Below are positions 23,020 to 32,892 of a DNA stretch of 36,206 nucleotides, piece by piece; within the stretch, counting starts at the first letter, position 1, and each line of letters opens with the position of its first letter. Source of the DNA: a candidate division WOR-3 bacterium (GTDB taxonomy: Bacteria > Hydrothermota > UBA3073 > NMUJ01); assembly GCA_021158725.1 (NCBI GenBank), contig JAGGUB010000042.1, forward strand, positions 1-36,206, read 5' to 3'. Under the pieces are notes generated by a model. That model had not been told where the DNA came from and ran no database searches. It saw only the letters and a program-made list of their open reading frames with translations. A program made the translations under genes and the position numbers.

Positions 23020-23427
23020 ATGCGTCACAAAGTGAAACGCATCAAATTGAGTCGGCACCTCGACCATAAGCGTGCTCTATTGCGTAACCTTGTAGCTGCA
23101 TTGTTCACACATAAAGCTATTGTCACCACAGAGGCGAAGGCACGTGCGGCACGCTCGCTTGCGGAACGGTTGATACATATCGCCAAAAGGGGAGACCTGG
23201 CTGCCCGTAGGGAAGTATTGGCGAGGTTACCACAACCAGATATCGTAAGGCATCTCTTTGACGTTATAGTGCCAAAAGTACGTGAGAGGGAAGGGGGTTA
23301 CACTCAAATATTACACTATGGGATAAGGAAGAGCGACGGTGCACGTCTTGTCCTCTGGAAGTTGACCGACTTCGAGAAAGAGGTGACAACCAAACCAGAG
23401 GAAAAATCCGCCAAACAAGGAGCATGA
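23020..23427 (+). CDS. rplQ: 50S ribosomal protein L17
   Basis: MRH...KLSR...HKRALLRNL...ITT.AKA...R.GGYT; last gene of the alpha cluster. Confidence 0.99.
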   Translation: MRHKVKRIKLSRHLDHKRALLRNLVAALFTHKAIVTTEAKARAARSLAERLIHIAKRGDLAARREVLARLPQPDIVRHLFDVIVPKVREREGGYTQILHYGIRKSDGARLVLWKLTDFEKEVTTKPEEKSAKQGA

Positions 23428-24386
23428 TGCGGAAGGTTGCATCTTTGTTATTTTTGTTTTGGATAGGTTCGTTATTTGCAGAGGTGAAGATTGGGTTCAT
23501 TAACTCACAAAGAATACTGGATGGATATCGTGGCAAAGAGACATTACTAAATGAATACAATAGACGTAAGCAAGAATGGGAGGCAAAGGCACAACAGATG
23601 CAAACCGAAATACGCGATATGTACAATGCCTTAGAAGAGCAACGTGCAATGCTATCCGAAGAGGCGTTTGATAGAAGGCTCTCAGAAATCCGTCAGAAGG
23701 AGGCTGAATATCAACAATTCTTACAGGAAGTGTTTGCCCCAGGTGGTAAGCTTGAGCAACTCTATAGCGAGGTGATGGATCCCTTCATACGTAGGGTGAA
23801 GGAGATAACCCAGAGAATAGCACAGGAGGAGGGTTATACGGTGATACTCGATCTTGCCAGCGGTATGGTACTTTACTATGATGAGAAAGACGACCTTACC
23901 CAGAAGGTGCTCAACGAGCTAAATGCTGAGTTTGTACAGGCTGAAATAGATACAACACCATCGTTGCTCGGTAAGCCACGTTTCTGGGTGTTTAAATTCA
24001 AAGAGTTGGACGATGAAAGCAAGCGGTTAGGGTTAGGTAGCAAGATGGCGAGCTTCATGAAGGCCGCTATCGCAGTCATCGGTAAATATGAGATAGCTGA
24101 AAAGGATCGTATCAACAGCGCCATAGGGGATGCAGGGCTTATAGGTAAGAGGGAAGAGGACTTCGATTTCCACGATGCATTGGAGGTGGGTAGGTTGGTA
24201 CCACTTGATCTGGTCATTATTGGTGAAGTTAGCACATCGGGTGGTGTAGTCACCGGCAAATGTAAAGTTATAAGTGTAAAAGAGGAGGCTGTGATAAGTG
24301 AGGTTGAAGAGACCATGACGGGTACGTCTGAGGAGGCTATAAAGACGCTTGTCTCGAAGATGGTGGAGAAAATACAGTTTCCATGA
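23424..24386 (+). CDS. OmpH/Skp periplasmic chaperone fused to a C-terminal alpha/beta domain (CsgG/FlgO/TolB_N-like)
   Basis: Signal peptide, then KIGFINSQRIL...coiled coil...IAQEEGYTVILD...DLTQKVLNELN (Skp), plus about 140 extra aa; directly upstream of lpxD as skp usually is. Confidence 0.85.
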   Translation: MMRKVASLLFLFWIGSLFAEVKIGFINSQRILDGYRGKETLLNEYNRRKQEWEAKAQQMQTEIRDMYNALEEQRAMLSEEAFDRRLSEIRQKEAEYQQFLQEVFAPGGKLEQLYSEVMDPFIRRVKEITQRIAQEEGYTVILDLASGMVLYYDEKDDLTQKVLNELNAEFVQAEIDTTPSLLGKPRFWVFKFKELDDESKRLGLGSKMASFMKAAIAVIGKYEIAEKDRINSAIGDAGLIGKREEDFDFHDALEVGRLVPLDLVIIGEVSTSGGVVTGKCKVISVKEEAVISEVEETMTGTSEEAIKTLVSKMVEKIQFP

Positions 24387-25390
24387 AAGTAAAAGATATA
24401 GCAGATATACTGGATGGTGAAGTAGATGGTGACCCCGAGCATGAGATCAAAGATATAGCACCTGTTGACGAAGTTGACGAAGATACGATCGCTGTATTAC
24501 GTAAGGAGGAGGATTGGCATAAGATTAAAAAGAAGGCTGGCGCTGTAGTGATCCCACCTAATGTAGTACCAGACCGCAAGTTAAGCTATAGTTTCATAAG
24601 GGTTAAAAATACAGAGGTTGCCTTTGTGCGGCTCGTTGAGCTATTTTATCCAAGGGAGGTACCACAGCCCTCCATAAGCCCAATGGCATACTTAGGTGAG
24701 GTCAAGTTAGGCAAAAATGTGCACATAGGTGCATATACATGGATAGGGGATGCGGTTGAGATAGGTGATCGTACCGTCGTACATCCGTTCGTATACATTG
24801 CAGGGGGTACCAAGATAGGTGCTAACACTGTAATATATCCAGGTGTCGTAATCTATCCACGTGTTACAATAGGGTCGAATGTCGTGATACATAGTGGTAC
24901 AATCATCGGTAGCCCCGGTTTTGGCTACGTAAGGTGTGAAGATGGATGGTTACATATACCACAGGTTGGCGGTGTAGTTATCGAGGATGACGTTCATATA
25001 GGGGCAAATGTCACCATAGATAGTGGAACGTTACGACCTACTCATATCGGTAAAGGGGTTAAGATCGATAATCTCGTCCAAATCGCACATAATGTGAAGA
25101 TAGGTGAGAACACGGTTATTGCGGCACAAACCGGTATCGCAGGTAGCTCAGAGCTCGGCAACTGGGTGATGTTGGGAGGGCAAGTGGGTATCACTGACCA
25201 TGTGAAGTTAGGCGATGGTGTTATGGTAGCTGCACAGTCAGGTGTTACGAAGAGTGCACCACCGAATACTAAGCTGTTTGGTTATCCCGCACGTGAATAT
25301 AATAAAGCACGACGTACCTATGCGATATTGTTTGAATTACCGCAAATTGCACGTAAAGTGAAAGAACTGGAGAAACGGTTAAAAGAATGA
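24383..25390 (+). CDS. lpxD: UDP-3-O-acyl-glucosamine N-acyltransferase LpxD
   Basis: Hexapeptide repeats; IGSPGFGY, IPQVGGVVIEDDVHIGANVTID, KIDNLVQIAHNVKIG, GQVGITDH. Confidence 0.97.
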   Translation: MKVKDIADILDGEVDGDPEHEIKDIAPVDEVDEDTIAVLRKEEDWHKIKKKAGAVVIPPNVVPDRKLSYSFIRVKNTEVAFVRLVELFYPREVPQPSISPMAYLGEVKLGKNVHIGAYTWIGDAVEIGDRTVVHPFVYIAGGTKIGANTVIYPGVVIYPRVTIGSNVVIHSGTIIGSPGFGYVRCEDGWLHIPQVGGVVIEDDVHIGANVTIDSGTLRPTHIGKGVKIDNLVQIAHNVKIGENTVIAAQTGIAGSSELGNWVMLGGQVGITDHVKLGDGVMVAAQSGVTKSAPPNTKLFGYPAREYNKARRTYAILFELPQIARKVKELEKRLKE

Positions 25391-25782: not shown

Positions 25783-26071
25783 ACCCAAAGACGCAAAGAT
25801 AATCTGTAGGTGTGAAGATCTCACAGAGGATGAAATCATAAAATATATTGAACAGGGCTACCATACGCTCGAGGAGATTAAGAGAGCTTCACGTGCAGGC
25901 ATGGGACACTGTCAGGGTAGGACCTGTCAAAGATTGATCGCACAAATCATTAGCAAGAAACTTGGTATTCCACTGGAAAATATAAAACCACCTACGGCAC
26001 GTCCACCTGTAAAACCTATACCTATTAAAGCTATTCTAAACTTAAAACGTAAAGATACTACACAGGATTAA
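25772..26071 (+). CDS. BFD-like (2Fe-2S)-binding protein
   Basis: ICRCEDLT...LEEIKRASRAGMGHCQGRTC...RPPVKP. Confidence 0.9.
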   Translation: MNDKPKDAKIICRCEDLTEDEIIKYIEQGYHTLEEIKRASRAGMGHCQGRTCQRLIAQIISKKLGIPLENIKPPTARPPVKPIPIKAILNLKRKDTTQD

Positions 26072-27372
26072 CGACCTACACCGCTGTAGGTGAAGCCCAA
26101 CTCTTTCATAACTCTGGGTTCGAGGAGGTTTACCCCATCAATTATTATAGGGGTGGACATACCCTTCTTAAGGCGTCGATAATCGAGTTGCTTGAACTCC
26201 TCCCATCCTACTAATAGGAGTAATAGATCTAAATCTTTGAATTCATAAGGAGTGGCACAATACTCAATATCGGGGAGTATGGTTTTGGCTTCATCCATGG
26301 CCATTGGATCATAAGCTTTTATTAATGCACCCCCCTGTTTCAACAGTTTCACTATCCTAACAGCGGGTGAGTTACGTATGTCCTTGGTACCTGGTTTAAA
26401 AGATAGCCCCAACACACCGATTGTTTTCCCATAGAGGATACCACCAAGTGCCTTCTTTACTTTCCACACTATGGACTGTATTTGTTCCTCGTTTCTTTCG
26501 AGTATGGACTTTAAAAAGCGTGGCTCATAGTCATAGGATTGTGCCATGTGGATGAGCGCTTTCAAATCTTTTGTAAGACATGGTCCACCAAACCCTATAC
26601 CGGGGGAGAGATATCCATCGCCTAACCTGGGATCATAGCTTAACCCTTTTATGACATTTTTGATATCAGCGCCTACTCTTTCTGAGATCGTAGCTATCTC
26701 ATTTATAAACGATATGCGGGAAGCAAGAAAGGCATTTGCTGCATACTTTATCATCTGTGCATCTATTGGTGGGGTTATGAGGATCGGTGTTGATAATGGT
26801 TTATAAAGTTGAGCCACAACCTGAGCCGCTTGCTTGTTGTCTGCTCCTATGACCACTCTGGAGGGTTTGAAAAAGTCATGGATTGCATTCCCTTCACGCA
26901 GGAATTCGGGGTTAACCACGAGATCGAAATCTTTACCTTCCTTACGTTTTTGTGACAGTATGTTCCTGATGAGGTCGACGCTCCCCACAGGGACGGTACT
27001 TTTTATCACGATGATCTTATAGTTATTTATTGATTCACTTAACCCATGTGCTACATCTATTATCTGAGAGAGATCAGCTTCACCAGTATCTTTAGTTGGT
27101 GTACCCACAGCTACGAAGATGATGGAAGATGACCTAACTGCTTCGTTTAAGTCTACCGTAAAGGTGAGCCTATGTCGGTTTTTACGTAGTAGCTGGTCCA
27201 TACCTGTTTCATAAATGGGTGAGATGCCGCGGTTTAATGCCTTGATCTTCTCGTCATCAACGTCCACCCCGATAACTTTATGCCCTAACTCAGCAAACCC
27301 TACTGCTGTGGTAAGCCCCACGTAACCCAACCCTATAACAGATAAAGTTTGTGATGTGGGACTGTGGTTCAT
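26068..27372 (-). CDS. ugd: UDP-glucose 6-dehydrogenase family protein
   Basis: VIGLGYVGL, FVAVGTP, IKSTVPVG, NPEFLREG, KYAANAFLA.RISFINE, GFGGPCLTKD; start moved to ATG 27372 (ATGA overlap with the epimerase). Confidence 0.93.
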   Translation of the reverse strand: MNHSPTSQTLSVIGLGYVGLTTAVGFAELGHKVIGVDVDDEKIKALNRGISPIYETGMDQLLRKNRHRLTFTVDLNEAVRSSSIIFVAVGTPTKDTGEADLSQIIDVAHGLSESINNYKIIVIKSTVPVGSVDLIRNILSQKRKEGKDFDLVVNPEFLREGNAIHDFFKPSRVVIGADNKQAAQVVAQLYKPLSTPILITPPIDAQMIKYAANAFLASRISFINEIATISERVGADIKNVIKGLSYDPRLGDGYLSPGIGFGGPCLTKDLKALIHMAQSYDYEPRFLKSILERNEEQIQSIVWKVKKALGGILYGKTIGVLGLSFKPGTKDIRNSPAVRIVKLLKQGGALIKAYDPMAMDEAKTILPDIEYCATPYEFKDLDLLLLLVGWEEFKQLDYRRLKKGMSTPIIIDGVNLLEPRVMKELGFTYSGVGR

Positions 27373-28340
27373 AGTTGCACTTGTTTCAGCCAACCTCTGT
27401 TTTTCACATGCCACTCTACGGTCATTTTTAATCCGTCCTCTATACCTATACGGGGTTGCCAACCCAAAAGCTTATTTGCTTTCGATATATCAGCCCAGCT
27501 TGCTTTCATATCTGCTACATGGAATGGTTTATGTTCTATTTTTGCTTTTTTGTTGAGAAGCTTCTCAATCAACGAGATAATGTATTTCAGGGAGTAAGGT
27601 TTGTTACCGCCACCTAAATTTATTATCTCATAACCTACGTTTTTGAGCGCCTTTATTGTGCCTTCAGCAATGTCATCCACATAAGTGAAGTCACGACTCT
27701 GCGAACCATCTCCAAATAGTTGGAGGGGTGTCCCTTCATCTATCCATTTGATGAACCTAAATATACTCATATCGGGACGGCCAGCTGGCCCATAAACCGT
27801 GAAATATCTAAGAATGGATACATCAATCCCATATAAAGAGTGGTAAGTATAAGATAGAACTTCTGCCGCTTTTTTCGATGCAGCATAAGGAGAGATAGGT
27901 GTGTTGACAGGTAGGTCCTCCTTGAATGGCATATTTTGTCCTGCATATAGGGAAGATGTGGATGCAAGGACAAATTTTCTTATGTCAAATTCTTTACAGA
28001 GTTCCAACAGGTTAAGTGTACCAAGCGTGTTGGTGGTGAAGTATATGTGTGGATTTTCCACCGAGGCTCTTACACCAGCACGTGCAGCTAAATTTATGAC
28101 AGCATCGAATTTGTACTTCTGGAATAATGAGCGTAAGGCTTCGATATGTTCGATGTCAAGCTTGTGGAACGTAAAATTGGCGAATCTTTCCAGTTGATTC
28201 AACCGCCATTGCTTAAGTCTTACATCGTAGTGGTGATTTAAGTTGTCGATACCAACCACTGTGTAGCTATATTCTAACAACTTTTCACAAGTCTTCCAAC
28301 CTATAAAACCAGCCGCTCCCGTAACTAATATAGACCCCAT
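27369..28340 (-). CDS. NAD-dependent epimerase, UDP-glucuronate 4-epimerase-like
   Basis: TGAAGFIG, LAARAGVRAS, ASTSSLY, YAASK, RYFTVYGPAGRPDM, RDFTYVDDI. Confidence 0.88.
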   Translation of the reverse strand: MGSILVTGAAGFIGWKTCEKLLEYSYTVVGIDNLNHHYDVRLKQWRLNQLERFANFTFHKLDIEHIEALRSLFQKYKFDAVINLAARAGVRASVENPHIYFTTNTLGTLNLLELCKEFDIRKFVLASTSSLYAGQNMPFKEDLPVNTPISPYAASKKAAEVLSYTYHSLYGIDVSILRYFTVYGPAGRPDMSIFRFIKWIDEGTPLQLFGDGSQSRDFTYVDDIAEGTIKALKNVGYEIINLGGGNKPYSLKYIISLIEKLLNKKAKIEHKPFHVADMKASWADISKANKLLGWQPRIGIEDGLKMTVEWHVKNRGWLKQVQL

Positions 28341-28429: not shown

Positions 28430-29887
28430 ATGGCTACAGAGAAGCTGAAAGTATGTATATTCAAAGGGGATAAGGTGAAGATAGAGCTTCGGAAGCCCAT
28501 TAAATTCGGTAATCAAAAGCTACGTGCCGGGGTTTGGGAAGTAAGGAGCGAGATACTGAGTTCACCCCATATTGACTACTTTCTGGTAGTAGGTGAATCT
28601 GCCGAAAAGGATAGATTAGCAAGCACAATAAAAGAGTTTGAATCACGTGGCTATTCATCAAGTGTGATCAAATATAAAGGTATATGGTTTGCAGGTATAG
28701 GGCCGTTTCGGGTACCGGATCCGTTGCAGATATTGTCGCATCACAGTGTGTACTTCTTTCCCGAGGTGAAGCGTCCAGCTATAGCCAAGGTGATCGCCCG
28801 CAATATAAGCGATGGTCGAACAGTGCAGTTAGCTCAACACTTTTATGTATCACCAGGGGAGCCATTCGATCTCATCATATATAATAAAGTGGGTCGTGGG
28901 TTCCATTTTGAGTTTGAAGAGAGGCAGAGTTATGAAGGTGAGATCGAATTCACTATCGGTTATGATGGTAAACTTCTTCTTATTAATCATATAGAGCTCG
29001 AGAGATATCTTGCGAGTGTGATATCGTCGGAAATGCTGGTATCACTCCCAATGGAGGCGTTGAAGGCGCAAGCTGTGGTTGCCAGAAACTGGTTACTTAC
29101 GGCAGCCATCAAACACCATATAGGGGAGCCTTTTGATGTATGTAACGATGATCATTGTCAGGAATATCGCGGTATAAGAGATGGGAACAATATTGCCCGT
29201 AAGGTGATAGATGAGACCCGCGGTGAGGCGCTCTACTATAAGGGTAAACTTGTGGATACGAGGTTTGCGAAGGTATGTGGTGGTGTAACCGAGGAGTTTA
29301 ATAACGTATGGGGTGAAACCTTTTACTCATGCTCGATATTCGATGGCCCCGGTACGTATAATATGGATCTGCAAAAAGAAGATAATTTCAGGTTATGGAT
29401 AGAACAGCCACCACCTGCGTATTGCAACACACAGGGTGATACTGAATATTTCGAATACGGTAGAAAGTACTTCAGGTGGTACGAAACAATCGACCCATAT
29501 GCATTGCGTGAGATTATTAACAACAAGACTGGCATAGATATAGGGTATCCAGTACGGGTCAACCCCTTAAGACGTGGTAGATCTGGCCGTATATTACAGT
29601 TACAAATAAAGGGAGAAAAGGGGACACTCGATGTGACGGGTGAGCTTAAAATACGAGCAATACTGTCGCCCACGTATTTGCCAAGTTCTGCATTCTATGT
29701 GAAATACAATGGACAACAGTTCATATTGAGAGGAGCAGGTTGGGGCCACGGGGTTGGAATGTGTCAGGTAGGGGCAGCTAAGTTAGCATCTATAGGATGG
29801 AATTACAGGCAGATACTTTTACATTATTACCCAAATACGGAAGTTAGACAAATTCATGTCAAAAAGGAGGAGGGATGCGTGTCATAA
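28430..29887 (+). CDS. SpoIID/LytB-family peptidoglycan lytic transglycosylase
   Basis: ERYLASVISSEM, EALKAQAVVARN, DVCNDDHCQEYRG, GWGHGVGMCQVGA...YRQILLHYYP. Confidence 0.92.
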   Translation: MATEKLKVCIFKGDKVKIELRKPIKFGNQKLRAGVWEVRSEILSSPHIDYFLVVGESAEKDRLASTIKEFESRGYSSSVIKYKGIWFAGIGPFRVPDPLQILSHHSVYFFPEVKRPAIAKVIARNISDGRTVQLAQHFYVSPGEPFDLIIYNKVGRGFHFEFEERQSYEGEIEFTIGYDGKLLLINHIELERYLASVISSEMLVSLPMEALKAQAVVARNWLLTAAIKHHIGEPFDVCNDDHCQEYRGIRDGNNIARKVIDETRGEALYYKGKLVDTRFAKVCGGVTEEFNNVWGETFYSCSIFDGPGTYNMDLQKEDNFRLWIEQPPPAYCNTQGDTEYFEYGRKYFRWYETIDPYALREIINNKTGIDIGYPVRVNPLRRGRSGRILQLQIKGEKGTLDVTGELKIRAILSPTYLPSSAFYVKYNGQQFILRGAGWGHGVGMCQVGAAKLASIGWNYRQILLHYYPNTEVRQIHVKKEEGCVS

Positions 29888-30657
29888 AGGTAAAAGACTA
29901 CGAACGTTTGTCTAAATTGGCTGCTAAAATAGTAGCTACTCTGATACGAGAAAAGCCAGACGCAGTGCTGGGGTTAGCTACCGGTAATACGCCGTTGGGT
30001 TTGTACCGTGAACTCATACGTATGCACAAAGAAGAGGGGCTCGATTTCTCACGAGTGGTTACGTTTAACCTCGATGAGTACATAGGGCTACCCAAGAACC
30101 ATCCACAAAGCTATCACCATTTCATGTGGGAGAATTTCTTCCACCATGTGAATATAAATCCATCCAACGTGCATATACCAGATGGTAACGCTCCCAATAT
30201 ACGGCAACATTGTGACTGGTATGAAGCTCGTATACGTAAGTTCGGTGGCATAGATCTACAGATATTGGGTATAGGGCGTGATGGCCACATAGGGTTTAAT
30301 GAACCTGGGTCATCTTTAGGGTCACGTACTCGTATAAAGACGTTGCTCGAAGTTACACGTAGAGATAATGCGAGATTCTTCGACGGCAAGATCGAAAATG
30401 TACCCAAATACGCAATCACGATGGGGATAGGTACGATTTTGGATGCAAAGGCGATATTGTTGTTAGCAAGTGGTGAATCCAAAGCAGATGCAATTAAAAA
30501 GGCGGTAGAAGGCCCTATAACAGCGATGGTGCCTGCGAGTGTGCTACAATTGCATCGTGACACCACAGTTATAGTAGATGAGGCAGCTGCTAAGTATCTG
30601 GAACTACCATGGGAAACAGAAGAGGATTACGAACGTGTGGAGTCACTTTTCGGTTGA
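29875..30657 (+). CDS. nagB: Glucosamine-6-phosphate deaminase
   Basis: VLGLATGNTP, TFNLDEY, GGIDLQILGIGRDGHIGFNEPG, AITMGIGTI. Confidence 0.97.
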   Translation: MRVIKVKDYERLSKLAAKIVATLIREKPDAVLGLATGNTPLGLYRELIRMHKEEGLDFSRVVTFNLDEYIGLPKNHPQSYHHFMWENFFHHVNINPSNVHIPDGNAPNIRQHCDWYEARIRKFGGIDLQILGIGRDGHIGFNEPGSSLGSRTRIKTLLEVTRRDNARFFDGKIENVPKYAITMGIGTILDAKAILLLASGESKADAIKKAVEGPITAMVPASVLQLHRDTTVIVDEAAAKYLELPWETEEDYERVESLFG

Positions 30658-31613
30658 TATAACAGACGAAGTATGAGGATACCACCGATTATCATAGCGA
30701 GCAACCCAGTATAAAACCGCCATATAACCACGTAAAGACCAAGAAGATGCGTGGGACATATAAGACGCCAGAACCCGAATCCACCAGCTTCTGCTACACC
30801 GGTTGATCCAGGTGTCGGTATAAAAAGTAACAAGTACGACAGTATTATCTGTATTACAAAAGTTGTCAAAAAGGGTGGATCAACACCTAACCCTTTGAAT
30901 AAGACATAAGGTATGGTAAAAAATGCACAACGTGCAATAAGGGTCGTACCGAACGAAAGTAGGAAAAATAGTTTACCATGGGTGAAAGTCTGTTTAATAG
31001 CAACCCGTAACTTTTGTAGCTCATTATATACGCGGGAGAACTTACCTTTTGACCACCTTTTGGGCATAAAAAGGAATACAATAAATAGTATTACAAGAAG
31101 CAAGACAATTATGCCTACGTAACTGCCAGCCCTTACAACGAAACGACCGCGTAGCAATTCTTTCTCTAAGAGTATAATCGGTATAAATAGGGGTAAGATC
31201 AATACGTTAAGTATCGCACGCATGATAATCACATTGCCGGCCTCACCGAGGTTAAGCCCATCCCGGTGTAGTACATAGAGTTGAAAAGGTACACCCACAA
31301 CACCGGTCGGTACTATGGTAAGGAAACAGCCCCCGAAATAGAATTCGGATGCCGTACGTAACGATATGGGTTTACCCATGGCACGACCCAGCACCTGTAC
31401 ACGTAGGAGTTCAAAATAATAGAACGTAGCTGTCACCAACAGTGCAAGCAGAAAGTATAGGGGGGAAAAGTTTCTGAACGCCTGTAAGGTGTCTTTACCT
31501 GTAGTGAAGACAAGTACCACGATTATGCTCACAACAGTTATGATGAGAAAAATACGTAACCACCGTACTATTAGGTTGCGTTTGGATTGAAGTATGGTTA
31601 ACTTATCTTCCAT
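30627..31613 (-). CDS. UPF0104 / lysylphosphatidylglycerol-synthase-TM (flippase-like) membrane protein
   Basis: Polytopic; IPTPGSTGVAEAG and VVIWRFYT motifs; F...IVPTGVVGVP segment. Confidence 0.8.
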   Translation of the reverse strand: MEDKLTILQSKRNLIVRWLRIFLIITVVSIIVVLVFTTGKDTLQAFRNFSPLYFLLALLVTATFYYFELLRVQVLGRAMGKPISLRTASEFYFGGCFLTIVPTGVVGVPFQLYVLHRDGLNLGEAGNVIIMRAILNVLILPLFIPIILLEKELLRGRFVVRAGSYVGIIVLLLVILFIVFLFMPKRWSKGKFSRVYNELQKLRVAIKQTFTHGKLFFLLSFGTTLIARCAFFTIPYVLFKGLGVDPPFLTTFVIQIILSYLLLFIPTPGSTGVAEAGGFGFWRLICPTHLLGLYVVIWRFYTGLLAMIIGGILILRLLYQPKSDSTRS

Positions 31614-32892
31614 TTAACCTGCGTTTAACTAATACCCCATATATAACTGAACTTGATATGCTTGAAACTGATACACCAAGTGGTAACGCAACAAGTCCCA
31701 ACCTACCCACAAACGTAAGTGCTACACCAAGATGTATGGCCACCCCTATTAGGGTAACTTTAAGTGGCGTCGTGGGTTCCTTCAATGCATAAAATATAGA
31801 TGAAAATGTGCGATTGAGCGTCATCCCCAGTATAGCAAACGAGTAAAAGCGTATGACACGTGAGGTATGGTACGTATCTACTGCAGTGAATGCACCATGT
31901 TGGTAAACGATACGACATAATGGATGTGCGAATATCAACAGCAAGGTAATAGCGGCCACACTACAGAGTATGCCGAATTTCAACACTTTATGTAGATCTT
32001 GTGTTATCGAACCAGTATCCGCAAATTGGCGCGTAAAAGTGGGTATACCAACATTTGCTATCGTTACACCTATCATACCAACAGGTAAATATATAAATCT
32101 AAATGCATACTCAAGGTACGAGATAGAACCTACCGCCAAAAAGGATGCGATAATGGTGTTGATGATGCTGCTCAATCGTAAAACCAGAAACGATATAACC
32201 ACGGGCAACATAAGACGTAACATACGACGTACGGTGGGATCGCTGAAGATGGGATAAGGTCGAAACCTATAACCATGCGATTTCAAAAAATGGTATTGGA
32301 GGGTAGCCTGACCGATACCACCGATAAGCACCCCTATAGCGATACTATACACACCGATGTATTTAGCAAATATAACAGATGTTGCGATTATGCCGATATT
32401 GAATAATACAGGTGCAATACCTGTGACAAAGAAACGCGAGAAGTAGTTCAATATCCCCATAAAAAACGTAGCTACCACCATTATTGGAAGGAAAGGCGAC
32501 ATCATCCGTGTGAGGCGGGTGGCAAGGTTGAACCTAAACGTATCGTGATAGAAGCCTGGACTTATTATACGTACGAGATAGGGTGCAAACAATGCTGTAA
32601 ATATGGATATAATCAGCGCTGTTGTGAGTACAGTACATATGGCGGTATTGGCAAACCGATATCCAGCTTGCTGGTCGGATTTTACCTTATCTGTAAATAA
32701 TGGTACGAACGATGGTATGATGCTACCTTCGGCTAACATCTCACGTGCAAGGTTAGCTATACGGAAGGATACCCAAAATGCGTCAAGGCTGGCAGATGCA
32801 CCAAAGAAGTGTGCGATGACGATTTCGCGAATAAACCCGAATGCTCGCGATATACCGGTACCCAAGCTGAAGCCAAACAGCTTACGATACAT
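31603..32892 (-). CDS. murJ: Lipid II flippase MurJ (MviN), short form
   Basis: SRAFGFIRE...FGASASLDAF...RIANLAREMLAEG...PVLFN...GSISYLEYAFR...LPVG...FYALKEPTTP; 429 aa. Confidence 0.92.
   Translation of the reverse strand: MYRKLFGFSLGTGISRAFGFIREIVIAHFFGASASLDAFWVSFRIANLAREMLAEGSIIPSFVPLFTDKVKSDQQAGYRFANTAICTVLTTALIISIFTALFAPYLVRIISPGFYHDTFRFNLATRLTRMMSPFLPIMVVATFFMGILNYFSRFFVTGIAPVLFNIGIIATSVIFAKYIGVYSIAIGVLIGGIGQATLQYHFLKSHGYRFRPYPIFSDPTVRRMLRLMLPVVISFLVLRLSSIINTIIASFLAVGSISYLEYAFRFIYLPVGMIGVTIANVGIPTFTRQFADTGSITQDLHKVLKFGILCSVAAITLLLIFAHPLCRIVYQHGAFTAVDTYHTSRVIRFYSFAILGMTLNRTFSSIFYALKEPTTPLKVTLIGVAIHLGVALTFVGRLGLVALPLGVSVSSISSSVIYGVLVKRRLNGR

Follow-up and report, generated by a model that had tools for sequence, protein, structure and literature searches.

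The window analyzed here, a stretch of 36,206 nucleotides, comes from the small genome of a candidate division WOR-3 bacterium. On its forward strand, an uninterrupted open reading frame with no internal stop codon (23424–24386) encodes a two-domain Skp protein of 320 residues if translation begins at the first ATG (23424), or of 319 residues if it begins at the second (23427). As the first ATG of the window corresponds to an isoleucine codon in close relatives, the true start is probably the second, giving a protein of 319 residues. A full-length family profile matches C9:23427–24377 (E-value of 4e-108). The 5′ end of the gene overlaps the stop codon of rplQ (23020–23427, + strand), the last gene of an rpsM-rpsK-rpsD-rpoA-rplQ block in the ORF list. 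Its own stop codon overlaps the start of lpxD by 4 nucleotides (ATGA), such that skp and lpxD are overlap-coupled. The lpxD gene (24383–25390, + strand), identified by the Pfam LpxD and Hexapep models, is the conserved downstream partner of skp.

The protein begins with a putative cleavable signal peptide, read directly from the sequence letters (MMRKVASLLFLFWIGSLFA|EVK, 23424–23480, + strand), in which a hydrophobic stretch at the N-terminus and the site LFA|EVK can be seen by eye. The leader looks like a signal-peptidase-I type, and inspection of its sequence revealed no lipobox cysteine, or indeed any cysteine. Hydrophobic leaders of the same kind precede a conserved KIGYI motif in an alignment of 41 family members. 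The leader is followed by a Skp/OmpH chaperone domain (residues 22–166, 23487–23921, + strand), which matches Pfam PF03938 with an E-value of 7.5e-29 and a score of 101.2 bits (cut-off 32.4) over profile positions 1–141 of 141. The Skp half is also matched by the sequences of Skp proteins in the PDB (8gl8_G, 9yju and 9nhx). In the AF2 model, it folds into three long helices (residues 38–72, 79–104 and 109–136) and the strands of a body, with pLDDT above 90 over residues 30–140, and Foldseek matches it to SkpA (8gl8), 4kqt, 1sg2 and 1u2m. Based on the Pfam, PDB sequence and Foldseek matches, the N-terminal half is a bona fide Skp. No other gene in the genome gives a real OmpH match, and this protein serves the cell as its one housekeeping Skp/OmpH periplasmic chaperone. 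The acidity of the Skp domain (pI ∼4.7) is not a peculiarity of this protein, as the short Skp proteins of neighboring phyla are just as acidic (median pI of 5.0).

The Skp domain is connected to the rest of the protein by an interdomain linker (residues 172–182, ...AEIDTTPSLLG..., 23937–23969, + strand). With ∼11 residues, it is the only stretch inside the protein whose pLDDT falls below 50 in the AF2 model, and both its length (roughly 10–15 residues) and its sequence vary across the family. The C-terminal α/β domain of ∼135 residues (residues ∼184–316, 23973–24371, + strand, delimited by a profile match) is predicted to consist of a first β-strand (β1, 186–189), helices 197–202 and 204–219, a short bridge (∼222–223), helices 227–236 and 249–258, three strands (263–272, 275–284 and 289–299) and a last helix (303–316), beyond which the protein extends for 4 residues. 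The model was built from a 41-sequence MSA and has a pLDDT of 89.6 overall and of ∼90–97 in the C-domain; it replaced a single-sequence run with a pLDDT of 55, in which the C-terminal half was below 50. With a pTM of only 0.47, the monomer model does not tell how the two domains are placed relative to each other. Only a few positions of the C-domain are strongly conserved in the family alignment (V189, E194, G205, G267 and V269) and, as a result, the sequence by itself points to no evident conserved surface for binding. Both observations count against the docking role discussed below.

The homology of the C-domain can be detected only through homologues and profiles, since direct scans of the C-terminal 138 residues against Pfam and NCBIfam gave noise (RPC3_helical and NuoB, E ≥0.01). 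The window protein itself reaches no Pfam gathering score for this domain, and the CsgG Pfam model has no match at E ≤1 in the window protein and none in the genome. A phmmer search with residues 175–320 (146 residues) identified CsgG/FlgO-domain proteins with E-values of 3e-5 to 6e-4 among 1.8 billion sequences. Alignment by hhalign to independent CsgG/FlgO-type domains gave a probability of 99.4% and an E-value of 6.8e-22 over 130 columns, and a profile of such independent domains matches C9:23973–24371 (E-value of 4.4e-13). The family profile identifies LpoB among PDB sequences with an E-value of 2.3e-5. Scanning of 22 family C-domains yielded six related Pfam families (FlgO, CsgG, DUF3280, TolB_N, LpoB and GNA1162-like), and some family members marginally pass the CsgG model (22.7 and 23.4 bits against 20.8). 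At the level of structure, Foldseek matches the C-domain to LpoB (4q6l), TolB (4pwz), PelC (9h80 and 5t10), GNA1162 (4hrv), CsgG (4uv2) and FlgT (3w1e), with E-values of 8e-6 to 7e-4 and a probability of 1.00 for LpoB, TolB-N, PelC, GNA1162 and CsgG. We conclude that the C-domain is homologous to the core fold of CsgG (its N-terminal part), FlgO, LpoB, the TolB N-domain, PelC and GNA1162, and we hold both this homology and the two-domain architecture with high confidence. The match of the CsgG/FlgO-type profile is the only one in the genome, and the TolB_N Pfam model has none; therefore, by these profiles and the CsgG Pfam model, the C-domain has no paralogue there.

These results agree closely with the preliminary description, which had been made from the sequence letters and had recognized a complete Skp domain followed by a domain of the CsgG/FlgO/LpoB/TolB_N type. 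The 320-residue, stop-free frame at 23424–24386 on the + strand is present as described, the Skp domain, expected to end near 23925, ends at 23921 in the Pfam match, and every sequence motif quoted is found in the ∼150 residues that follow it. The fold assignment is upheld by the phmmer, hhalign and LpoB profile results, and the Foldseek comparison, which had been proposed as a check, does not bear out a different fold.

Compared to Skp/OmpH (E. coli Skp, 1sg2, 1u2m; PF03938), the N-terminal 170 residues fill the whole OmpH model and share the putative signal peptide, the predicted β body with long helical arms and the gene position directly upstream of lpxD and, in relatives, downstream of bamA. 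The WOR-3 protein differs in being twice as long, with a folded C-terminal domain added. The closest solved structure to this added domain is the C-terminal domain of LpoB (4q6l, 4q6z, 2mii; PF13036), with a Foldseek E-value of 8e-6 in addition to the profile match above. The two have the same size and α/β topology and can be superposed with a TM-score of 0.69 normalized to the target, at ∼12–15% sequence identity. LpoB, a lipoprotein of the outer membrane whose stalk is long and disordered, binds the UB2H domain of PBP1B and activates this enzyme. In contrast, the WOR-3 domain lacks both a lipobox and a stalk, and is located behind a Skp domain after the short linker.

The strongest sequence-profile relation of the C-domain is to CsgG/FlgO (PF03783, PF17680; the hhalign match above), and it shares with CsgG/FlgO, PelC, GNA1162 and the TolB N-domain a hydrophobic β1, a G-helix, a further helix and then "IGxV" β-strands. 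However, the family matches cover only about positions 5–105 of the 210-position CsgG model, and the TM-score normalized to CsgG is 0.32–0.38 with an rmsd of ∼13 Å (Foldseek). The C-domain is internal, following Skp, and has no lipid anchor. Since both the lipobox and the channel hairpins of CsgG are absent, it is not a CsgG pore. TolB (PF04052 and a six-bladed β-propeller) differs in its propeller, as no such propeller follows the domain in the WOR-3 protein.

The fusion is matched in 119 of the 121 sampled genomes of the WOR-3 phylum, representing 62 of 63 genera; in neighboring and outgroup phyla, only the Skp part is matched and Skp is short. Nearly all of the best matches listed in this phylum survey are full-length frames without an internal stop. 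When compared to relatives of 95% identity, dN/dS is 0.013–0.018 for the Skp domain and 0.044–0.046 for the C-domain, indicating that both are under strong purifying selection (dN/dS of 0.01–0.05). Thus, the same architecture in nearly all sampled genomes and a dN/dS of ∼0.045 for the C-terminal half show that the open frame of the fusion is not due to chance. A length twice that usual for Skp is all that would prompt one to suspect an assembly or annotation artefact, with two genes joined because a stop codon was lost or the frame shifted. This reading is refuted by the intact frames across the phylum and by the low dN/dS across the junction; the same frame is found in independent assemblies (NCBI, JGI, ENA and Logan), and AF2 is confident in both domains. 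We give it practically no weight, and the read error at a stop codon that the preliminary description had named as a risk is dismissed with it.

We examined 83 related loci (L006–L088), searched with a 10-sequence alignment, for C-domain content and neighbors. In relatives, the gene order is bamA-skp-lpxD-lpxC/fabZ-lpxA: of the related loci whose upstream flank is available, most have bamA immediately before the fusion gene or no more than ∼2 kb further upstream, and the next gene after the fusion is lpxD-like in most loci and fabZ or lpxA in some. In many WOR-3 genomes, two lineage-specific genes, encoding a lipoprotein and a β-barrel-like protein, are inserted between bamA and the fusion gene; a search of the genome of the window found no clear counterpart of either, with one weak match (E-value of 8e-7). 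In this genus, rplQ takes the place usually held by bamA, and the order RpoA-RplQ-Skp-LpxD is also seen in L009 and L010, two relatives with 95% identity. The bamA gene of this genome stands alone on another contig (C41:2828–5053). The genome further encodes a BamD-like protein (C115:13995–14534) and a SurA_N_3 protein (C36:96568–97062). The absence of bamA upstream, pointed out in the preliminary description, is thus real. It is not linked to the fusion, as relatives with the canonical bamA-skp-lpxD order have the same fusion. That skp is not adjacent to bamA in this genome is an observation that speaks against docking of its product at BAM. C-domain profiles run against the ORFs of the 83 loci, BamA included, gave no match beyond the Skp fusions. 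Elsewhere in the phylum, domains of this class are found in long ORFs encoding Ser/Thr kinase-TPR, VWA-looking and PEGA-type proteins, none of them BamA; a word-indexed search starting from one of these ORFs returned no other sequence than itself.

The function of the two-domain Skp is inferred from its fold and gene context. Skp is a trimer in the structures that have been solved (1sg2, 1u2m and 8gl8), and the Skp C-terminus exits at the "body" end. We assume that the WOR-3 Skp likewise forms trimers and holds outer-membrane proteins (OMPs). By analogy with these structures, the mature protein would be a jellyfish-shaped trimer that accommodates unfolded OMPs between its helical arms, and it would bear three C-domains on short tethers at the body, far from the tips of the arms. 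Holding of clients would still be the task of the Skp domain, and the C-domains would dock the trimer to, or concentrate it at, a partner in the envelope close to the outer membrane.

To our knowledge, the fold serves as an outer-membrane-proximal module for protein-protein interaction or oligomerization in every characterized relative. LpoB binds PBP1B, the TolB N-domain binds TolA, and PelC, CsgG and FlgT form rings. For this reason, docking is the most likely role of the C-domain, although we propose it tentatively. The bamA-skp-lpxD operon context makes BAM the first candidate for the partner; the fold alone does not point to BAM, since the same class is fused to kinase-TPR and VWA-looking modules in the phylum. 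Taken as a whole, an explanation in which this is the only Skp of the cell, is two-domain across the phylum and uses its C-domains to dock the trimer at an envelope partner appears reasonably probable. A stricter version, in which the WOR-3 Skp is not free-diffusing at all and the trimer is fixed to BAM or to a lineage-specific partner (e.g. the lipoprotein and barrel pair), seems doubtful.

The C-domain could also handle clients itself: it might act as a lid, bind unfolded OMPs or lipoproteins at a second site, or serve as a sensor controlling their release. Strong purifying selection on the domain would fit such a role, as would its occurrence, in the loci examined, always joined to the chaperone and never as a separate neighboring gene. 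However, the disordered linker of ∼11 residues leaves from the body, so that the cavity opening at the arm tips would be out of reach in the geometry of 1sg2 and 1u2m, and we know of no member of the CsgG-core/LpoB/TolB-N fold that binds unfolded proteins. We therefore consider client handling very unlikely.

The tethering of three C-domains close together near the body by a short linker is also consistent with their self-association, whereby they would form a cap or clamp on the Skp trimer, or join trimers into larger assemblies, and so stabilize it rather than bind another machine. The structural relatives identified by Foldseek include proteins that form rings or oligomers (12-mers of PelC, 9-mers of CsgG, and FlgT), and extra stability could be of help in a setting such as that of the closest named relative (WOR-3 4484_18), whose source looks like a hydrothermal metagenome-assembled genome. 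Nevertheless, Skp trimerizes unaided in all solved structures, and a special need for stabilization is not evident for a fusion that occurs in 62 of 63 sampled genera. Self-association in place of docking is thus unlikely.

The best PDB match to the protein, by both sequence (E-value of 1.6e-8) and structure (E-value of 9e-9), is SkpA of the type 9 secretion extended translocon from Flavobacterium johnsoniae (8gl8), a member of the same FCB superphylum. In Flavobacterium, SkpA is built permanently into an outer-membrane machine, where the Skp scaffold has taken on a structural role, and its C-terminal extension contacts the outer-membrane partner PorV (PMC10994853). SkpA is a precedent for docking of the WOR-3 Skp as well. 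By analogy, the WOR-3 protein might not act mainly as a free OMP chaperone but belong permanently to the structure of some other outer-membrane complex, to which the C-domain would attach it, and the lipoprotein and β-barrel-like genes of many WOR-3 genomes would be in keeping with this. Both proteins are Skps with a C-terminal extension, but that of SkpA is mainly unresolved save for one ordered helix and contains no folded α/β domain (PMC10994853). No homology between it and the WOR-3 C-domain is seen, as the alignment ends at residue 168. Moreover, Bacteroidota retain a second, essential SkpB for other roles (PMC10994853), whereas the WOR-3 protein is the sole Skp of its genome and occupies the housekeeping slot before lpxD, so that a general chaperone would still be needed. 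With no clear counterpart of the lipoprotein and β-barrel genes here, a purely structural role is less likely still than self-association, and docking of a working chaperone remains our preferred reading.

Proteins of this architecture are named only "OmpH family" or "hypothetical" in databases. The preliminary description had named an architecture already common and characterized as a finding that would refute its claim. It is common, being near-universal in the phylum sample and present in precomputed Pfam tables; as for characterization, literature searches on Skp/OmpH with CsgG/LpoB, or on WOR-3 with Skp, found no paper on it. Such proteins deserve a second domain call besides "OmpH family", and the two-domain Skp can serve as a clean sequence marker of the WOR-3 lineage. 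WOR-3 organisms are uncultured, as far as we know; the protein itself is small, soluble and easily expressed.

Textbooks present Skp as a holdase that is small, free and made of one domain. Across the WOR-3 phylum, nearly all sampled genomes have a two-domain Skp in place of this usual form, and the fold class of the added module is otherwise found in outer-membrane-associated adaptors and ring-formers. In E. coli, chaperone and insertase interact transiently, and their contact is difficult to trap. WOR-3 would offer a natural, genetically fixed coupling of the two if the module attaches Skp to BAM or another envelope machine. Should the Skp be permanently docked, the hand-over of OMPs would take place inside a standing chaperone-insertase supercomplex, a new mode of periplasmic chaperone organization, which, together with SkpA of Bacteroidota, would point to machine-bound Skp being widespread in the FCB group.

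The Skp fusion is encoded by an uninterrupted open reading frame of 320 residues on the forward strand (23424..24386). Its start overlaps the stop codon of rplQ (ATGATG), and at the other end its stop codon shares the sequence ATGA with the start codon of the following gene, identified by Pfam as lpxD. The second ATG, at 23427, appears to be the likelier start, giving a protein of 319 residues, because two 95%-identical relatives (L009 and L010) carry an Ile codon at the position of the first. The N-terminus (MMRKVASLLFLFWIGSLFA, followed by EVK) has the appearance of an ordinary cleavable signal peptide, and its inspection revealed no lipobox cysteine. All the features listed in the preliminary description are present at 23424..24386. 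Pfam OmpH (PF03938) covers residues 22–166 over the whole model, with 101 bits against a cut-off of 32.4 (E 7.5e-29). Among solved structures, the best sequence match is to Flavobacterium johnsoniae SkpA (8gl8_G, E 1.6e-8), whose alignment ends at residue 168, and a Foldseek search of the PDB with an AlphaFold2 model matched the first half to Skp structures (8gl8, 4kqt, 1sg2 and 1u2m). A scan of the whole 1.25-Mb, 88%-complete MAG found no second credible OmpH gene; the fusion is the sole Skp of the organism.

The remainder of the protein is an α/β domain (C-domain, residues ~184–316), and direct Pfam and NCBIfam scans of residues 183–320 gave nothing usable. A phmmer search with residues 175–320 against 1.84 billion representatives identified 15 proteins, mostly Skp fusions of 313–327 residues or their fragments. 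Four (P0016, P0017, P0018 and P0023; E 3e-5 to 6e-4) are unrelated proteins, and their matched stretches are Pfam CsgG/FlgO/LpoB domains (CsgG E 1e-14 to 2e-35). When 22 C-domains of the fusion family were scanned one by one, Pfam matches were obtained to FlgO (9/22), CsgG (7/22), DUF3280 (7/22), TolB_N (6/22), LpoB (4/22) and GNA1162-like (3/22) models, and two full-length homologues exceeded the CsgG gathering score. A profile of these 22 domains matched LpoB among PDB sequences (4q6z, E 2.3e-5) and aligned in hhalign with the independent CsgG/FlgO-type domains over 130 columns (99.4% probability, E 6.8e-22). The sole match of the independent profile in the six-frame genome was C9:23973-24371, within this gene (E 4.4e-13). 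The AlphaFold2 model, built with a 41-sequence family alignment, has a mean pLDDT of 89.6, residues 172–182 being the only internal low-confidence stretch. Its second half matched LpoB (4q6l, Foldseek E 8e-6, TM 0.69 to target), the TolB N-domain (4pwz, E 4.5e-5), PelC (9h80/5t10, E about 2e-4), GNA1162 (4hrv, E 2e-4) and CsgG (4uv2, E 7e-4), and more weakly FlgT (3w1e) and HpaA (8t8d). These five independent lines (phmmer, Pfam on homologues, PDB profile, hhalign, and AlphaFold2 with Foldseek) establish the C-domain as a real domain of the CsgG-core/FlgO/LpoB/TolB-N class, and therefore bear out the fold class proposed in the preliminary description.

The C-domain is a member of this fold class and of none of the named families CsgG, TolB and LpoB. 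A CsgG channel is rejected: the domain has only ~135 residues, family members match only roughly positions 5–105 of the 210-position model, and CsgG structures over their full length fit poorly (TM 0.3, rmsd about 13 Å with Foldseek). It is not TolB, since no propeller comes after it, nor LpoB in the functional sense, since the lipoprotein stalk and the lipobox are both lacking; the domain carries no lipid anchor. Conservation within the domain is modest, with V189, E194, A199, G205, G267 and V269 standing out and a family-specific 'KE-x3-EA' segment between β1 and the first long helix; no binding site could be named from it. The CsgG and TolB_N Pfam models and the independent profile found no other member of the class in this genome.

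An even sample of the organism's own phylum (121 genomes, 95 of high quality, 63 genera) gave matches in 119 genomes, including 94 of the high-quality ones and 62 genera. Among the best matches listed, nearly all span positions ~1–314 of 315 in one open frame without stops; the few partial ones mostly reach contig ends. This makes the fusion a phylum-wide trait and not an error such as a misread stop codon. Comparison with the two 95%-identical relatives gave dN/dS values of 0.013–0.018 for the Skp domain and 0.044–0.046 for the C-domain (dS about 0.4–0.6), in agreement with a genuine phylum-wide trait. In a profile search of 5.8 billion proteins, about 45 clusters (90% identity) had the long architecture (300–347 residues). 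They come from WOR-3 and TA06 MAGs, under the names 'OmpH family outer membrane protein' or 'hypothetical'; a few entries have precomputed CsgG, FlgO or LpoB calls next to OmpH. A species-level genome collection yielded 37 loci whose match continues well past the Skp part, to query residue about 272–320; their NCBI labels are WOR-3 or TA06, except for a few Cloacimonadota- or Acetofilamentum-labelled bins. Eight of nine checked fusion loci are the same records as own-phylum sample genomes, with identical coordinates and scores, and include a TA06-labelled, two Cloacimonadota-labelled and an Acetofilamentum-labelled bin; SM23_40, a TA06-labelled fusion genome, lies outside the sample. Matches from other phyla in the collection (Eisenbacteria, Gemmatimonadota, Calditrichota, Fibrobacterota, Krumholzibacteria, a Cloacimonadota bin and others) end at residue about 167–186, covering the Skp part only, and there the next gene starts about 500–700 nt after the skp start, compared to about 900–1000 nt in fusion carriers. 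A single early fusion is the simplest explanation of this distribution.

Domains of the CsgG-core/FlgO type also occur in other architectures in the phylum and in a Calditrichaceae bin (reverse strand, L093:1656-4622, L094:1033-3363, L095:1147-3447, L096:2077-4890, L098:1315-2955 and L097:939-2969; forward strand, L099:2073-3608). These comprise a Ser/Thr kinase, TM segment and the domain followed by long TPR arrays (767–989 residues), the domain followed by a region whose sequence appears VWA-like (512–547 residues), and a 663-residue protein to which precomputed calls assign PF16538, PF08308 (PEGA) and CsgG. In all of them the domain directly follows a membrane anchor or signal peptide, which fits a general periplasmic interaction module. 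Across 83 loci examined (L006–L088), no BamA gene carries an added domain of the TolB-N/LpoB/CsgG type ahead of POTRA1.

In relatives, the fusion gene lies within the classical envelope cluster bamA-skp-lpxD-(lpxC/fabZ)-lpxA, whereas in this genus skp-lpxD is located behind rpoA-rplQ, the end of rpsM-rpsK-rpsD-rpoA-rplQ being joined to it by overlapping stop and start codons (window 23020-25390; also L009 and L010). A ComEA-like HHH protein and a BFD-like [2Fe-2S] protein follow lpxD in place of lpxC/fabZ-lpxA. As the preliminary description stated, bamA is missing from its usual upstream position; it stands alone on another contig (C41), facing the gatB end. Its absence upstream thus represents a local rearrangement with no connection to the fusion. 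Genes for a BamD-like protein and a SurA_N_3 protein are also present in the genome. Downstream of the lpxD region is an envelope and sugar-nucleotide neighbourhood (26068-28340 and 30627-32892, reverse; 28430-29887, forward) with a UDP-glucose/GDP-mannose dehydrogenase, an NAD-dependent epimerase/dehydratase, a SpoIID-domain protein, a glucosamine-6-P isomerase/6-phosphogluconolactonase-family protein, an LPG_synthase_TM protein and a 429-residue MurJ. A subset of WOR-3 genomes has a pair of lineage-specific genes separating bamA from the fusion (L012:2086-4004 and L030:2009-4017; also L013, L014, L021, L025, L026, L029 and L033). The first encodes a lipoprotein of 324–349 residues (lipobox ...SGCG/IGCE) and the second a putative β-barrel of 315–320 residues. 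Each of the four genes overlaps or abuts its neighbour, marking the pair as candidate BAM accessory proteins; this genome has one weak match only to the barrel-like protein (C40, E 8e-7).

The domain composition of the fusion, its flexible linker, its lack of a lipid anchor, its conservation and its context are established by observation. Known Skp structures (1sg2, 1u2m and 8gl8) trimerize via the β body, from which the C-terminus exits. By analogy, the fusion would trimerize through this body and hold unfolded OMPs between its helical arms. With the C-terminus exiting at the body and only ~11 disordered residues following it, three C-domains would decorate the body end, out of reach of the arm tips; direct handling of clients by the C-domain is improbable. 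To our knowledge, all characterised relatives of the fold are binding or ring-forming modules at or under the outer membrane. Tentatively, the most likely function of the C-domains would be to dock the trimer to an envelope partner, with BAM as the first candidate; self-association or stabilisation through the C-domains seems unlikely. SkpA of Bacteroidota, an FCB relative, is a Skp whose C-terminal extension contacts PorV and which is itself integral to the T9SS translocon (PMC10994853). This precedent is relevant, and a similar role for the fusion, as a fixed structural part of another machine, is rather doubtful.

Full-text literature searches found no paper on this architecture, and public names of these proteins do not mention the second domain. 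The carriers in WOR-3 are, as far as we know, uncultured. The fusion joins a known chaperone to a known fold in a combination not found characterised in the literature searched. The fusion itself is a solid finding that can be cleanly tested.
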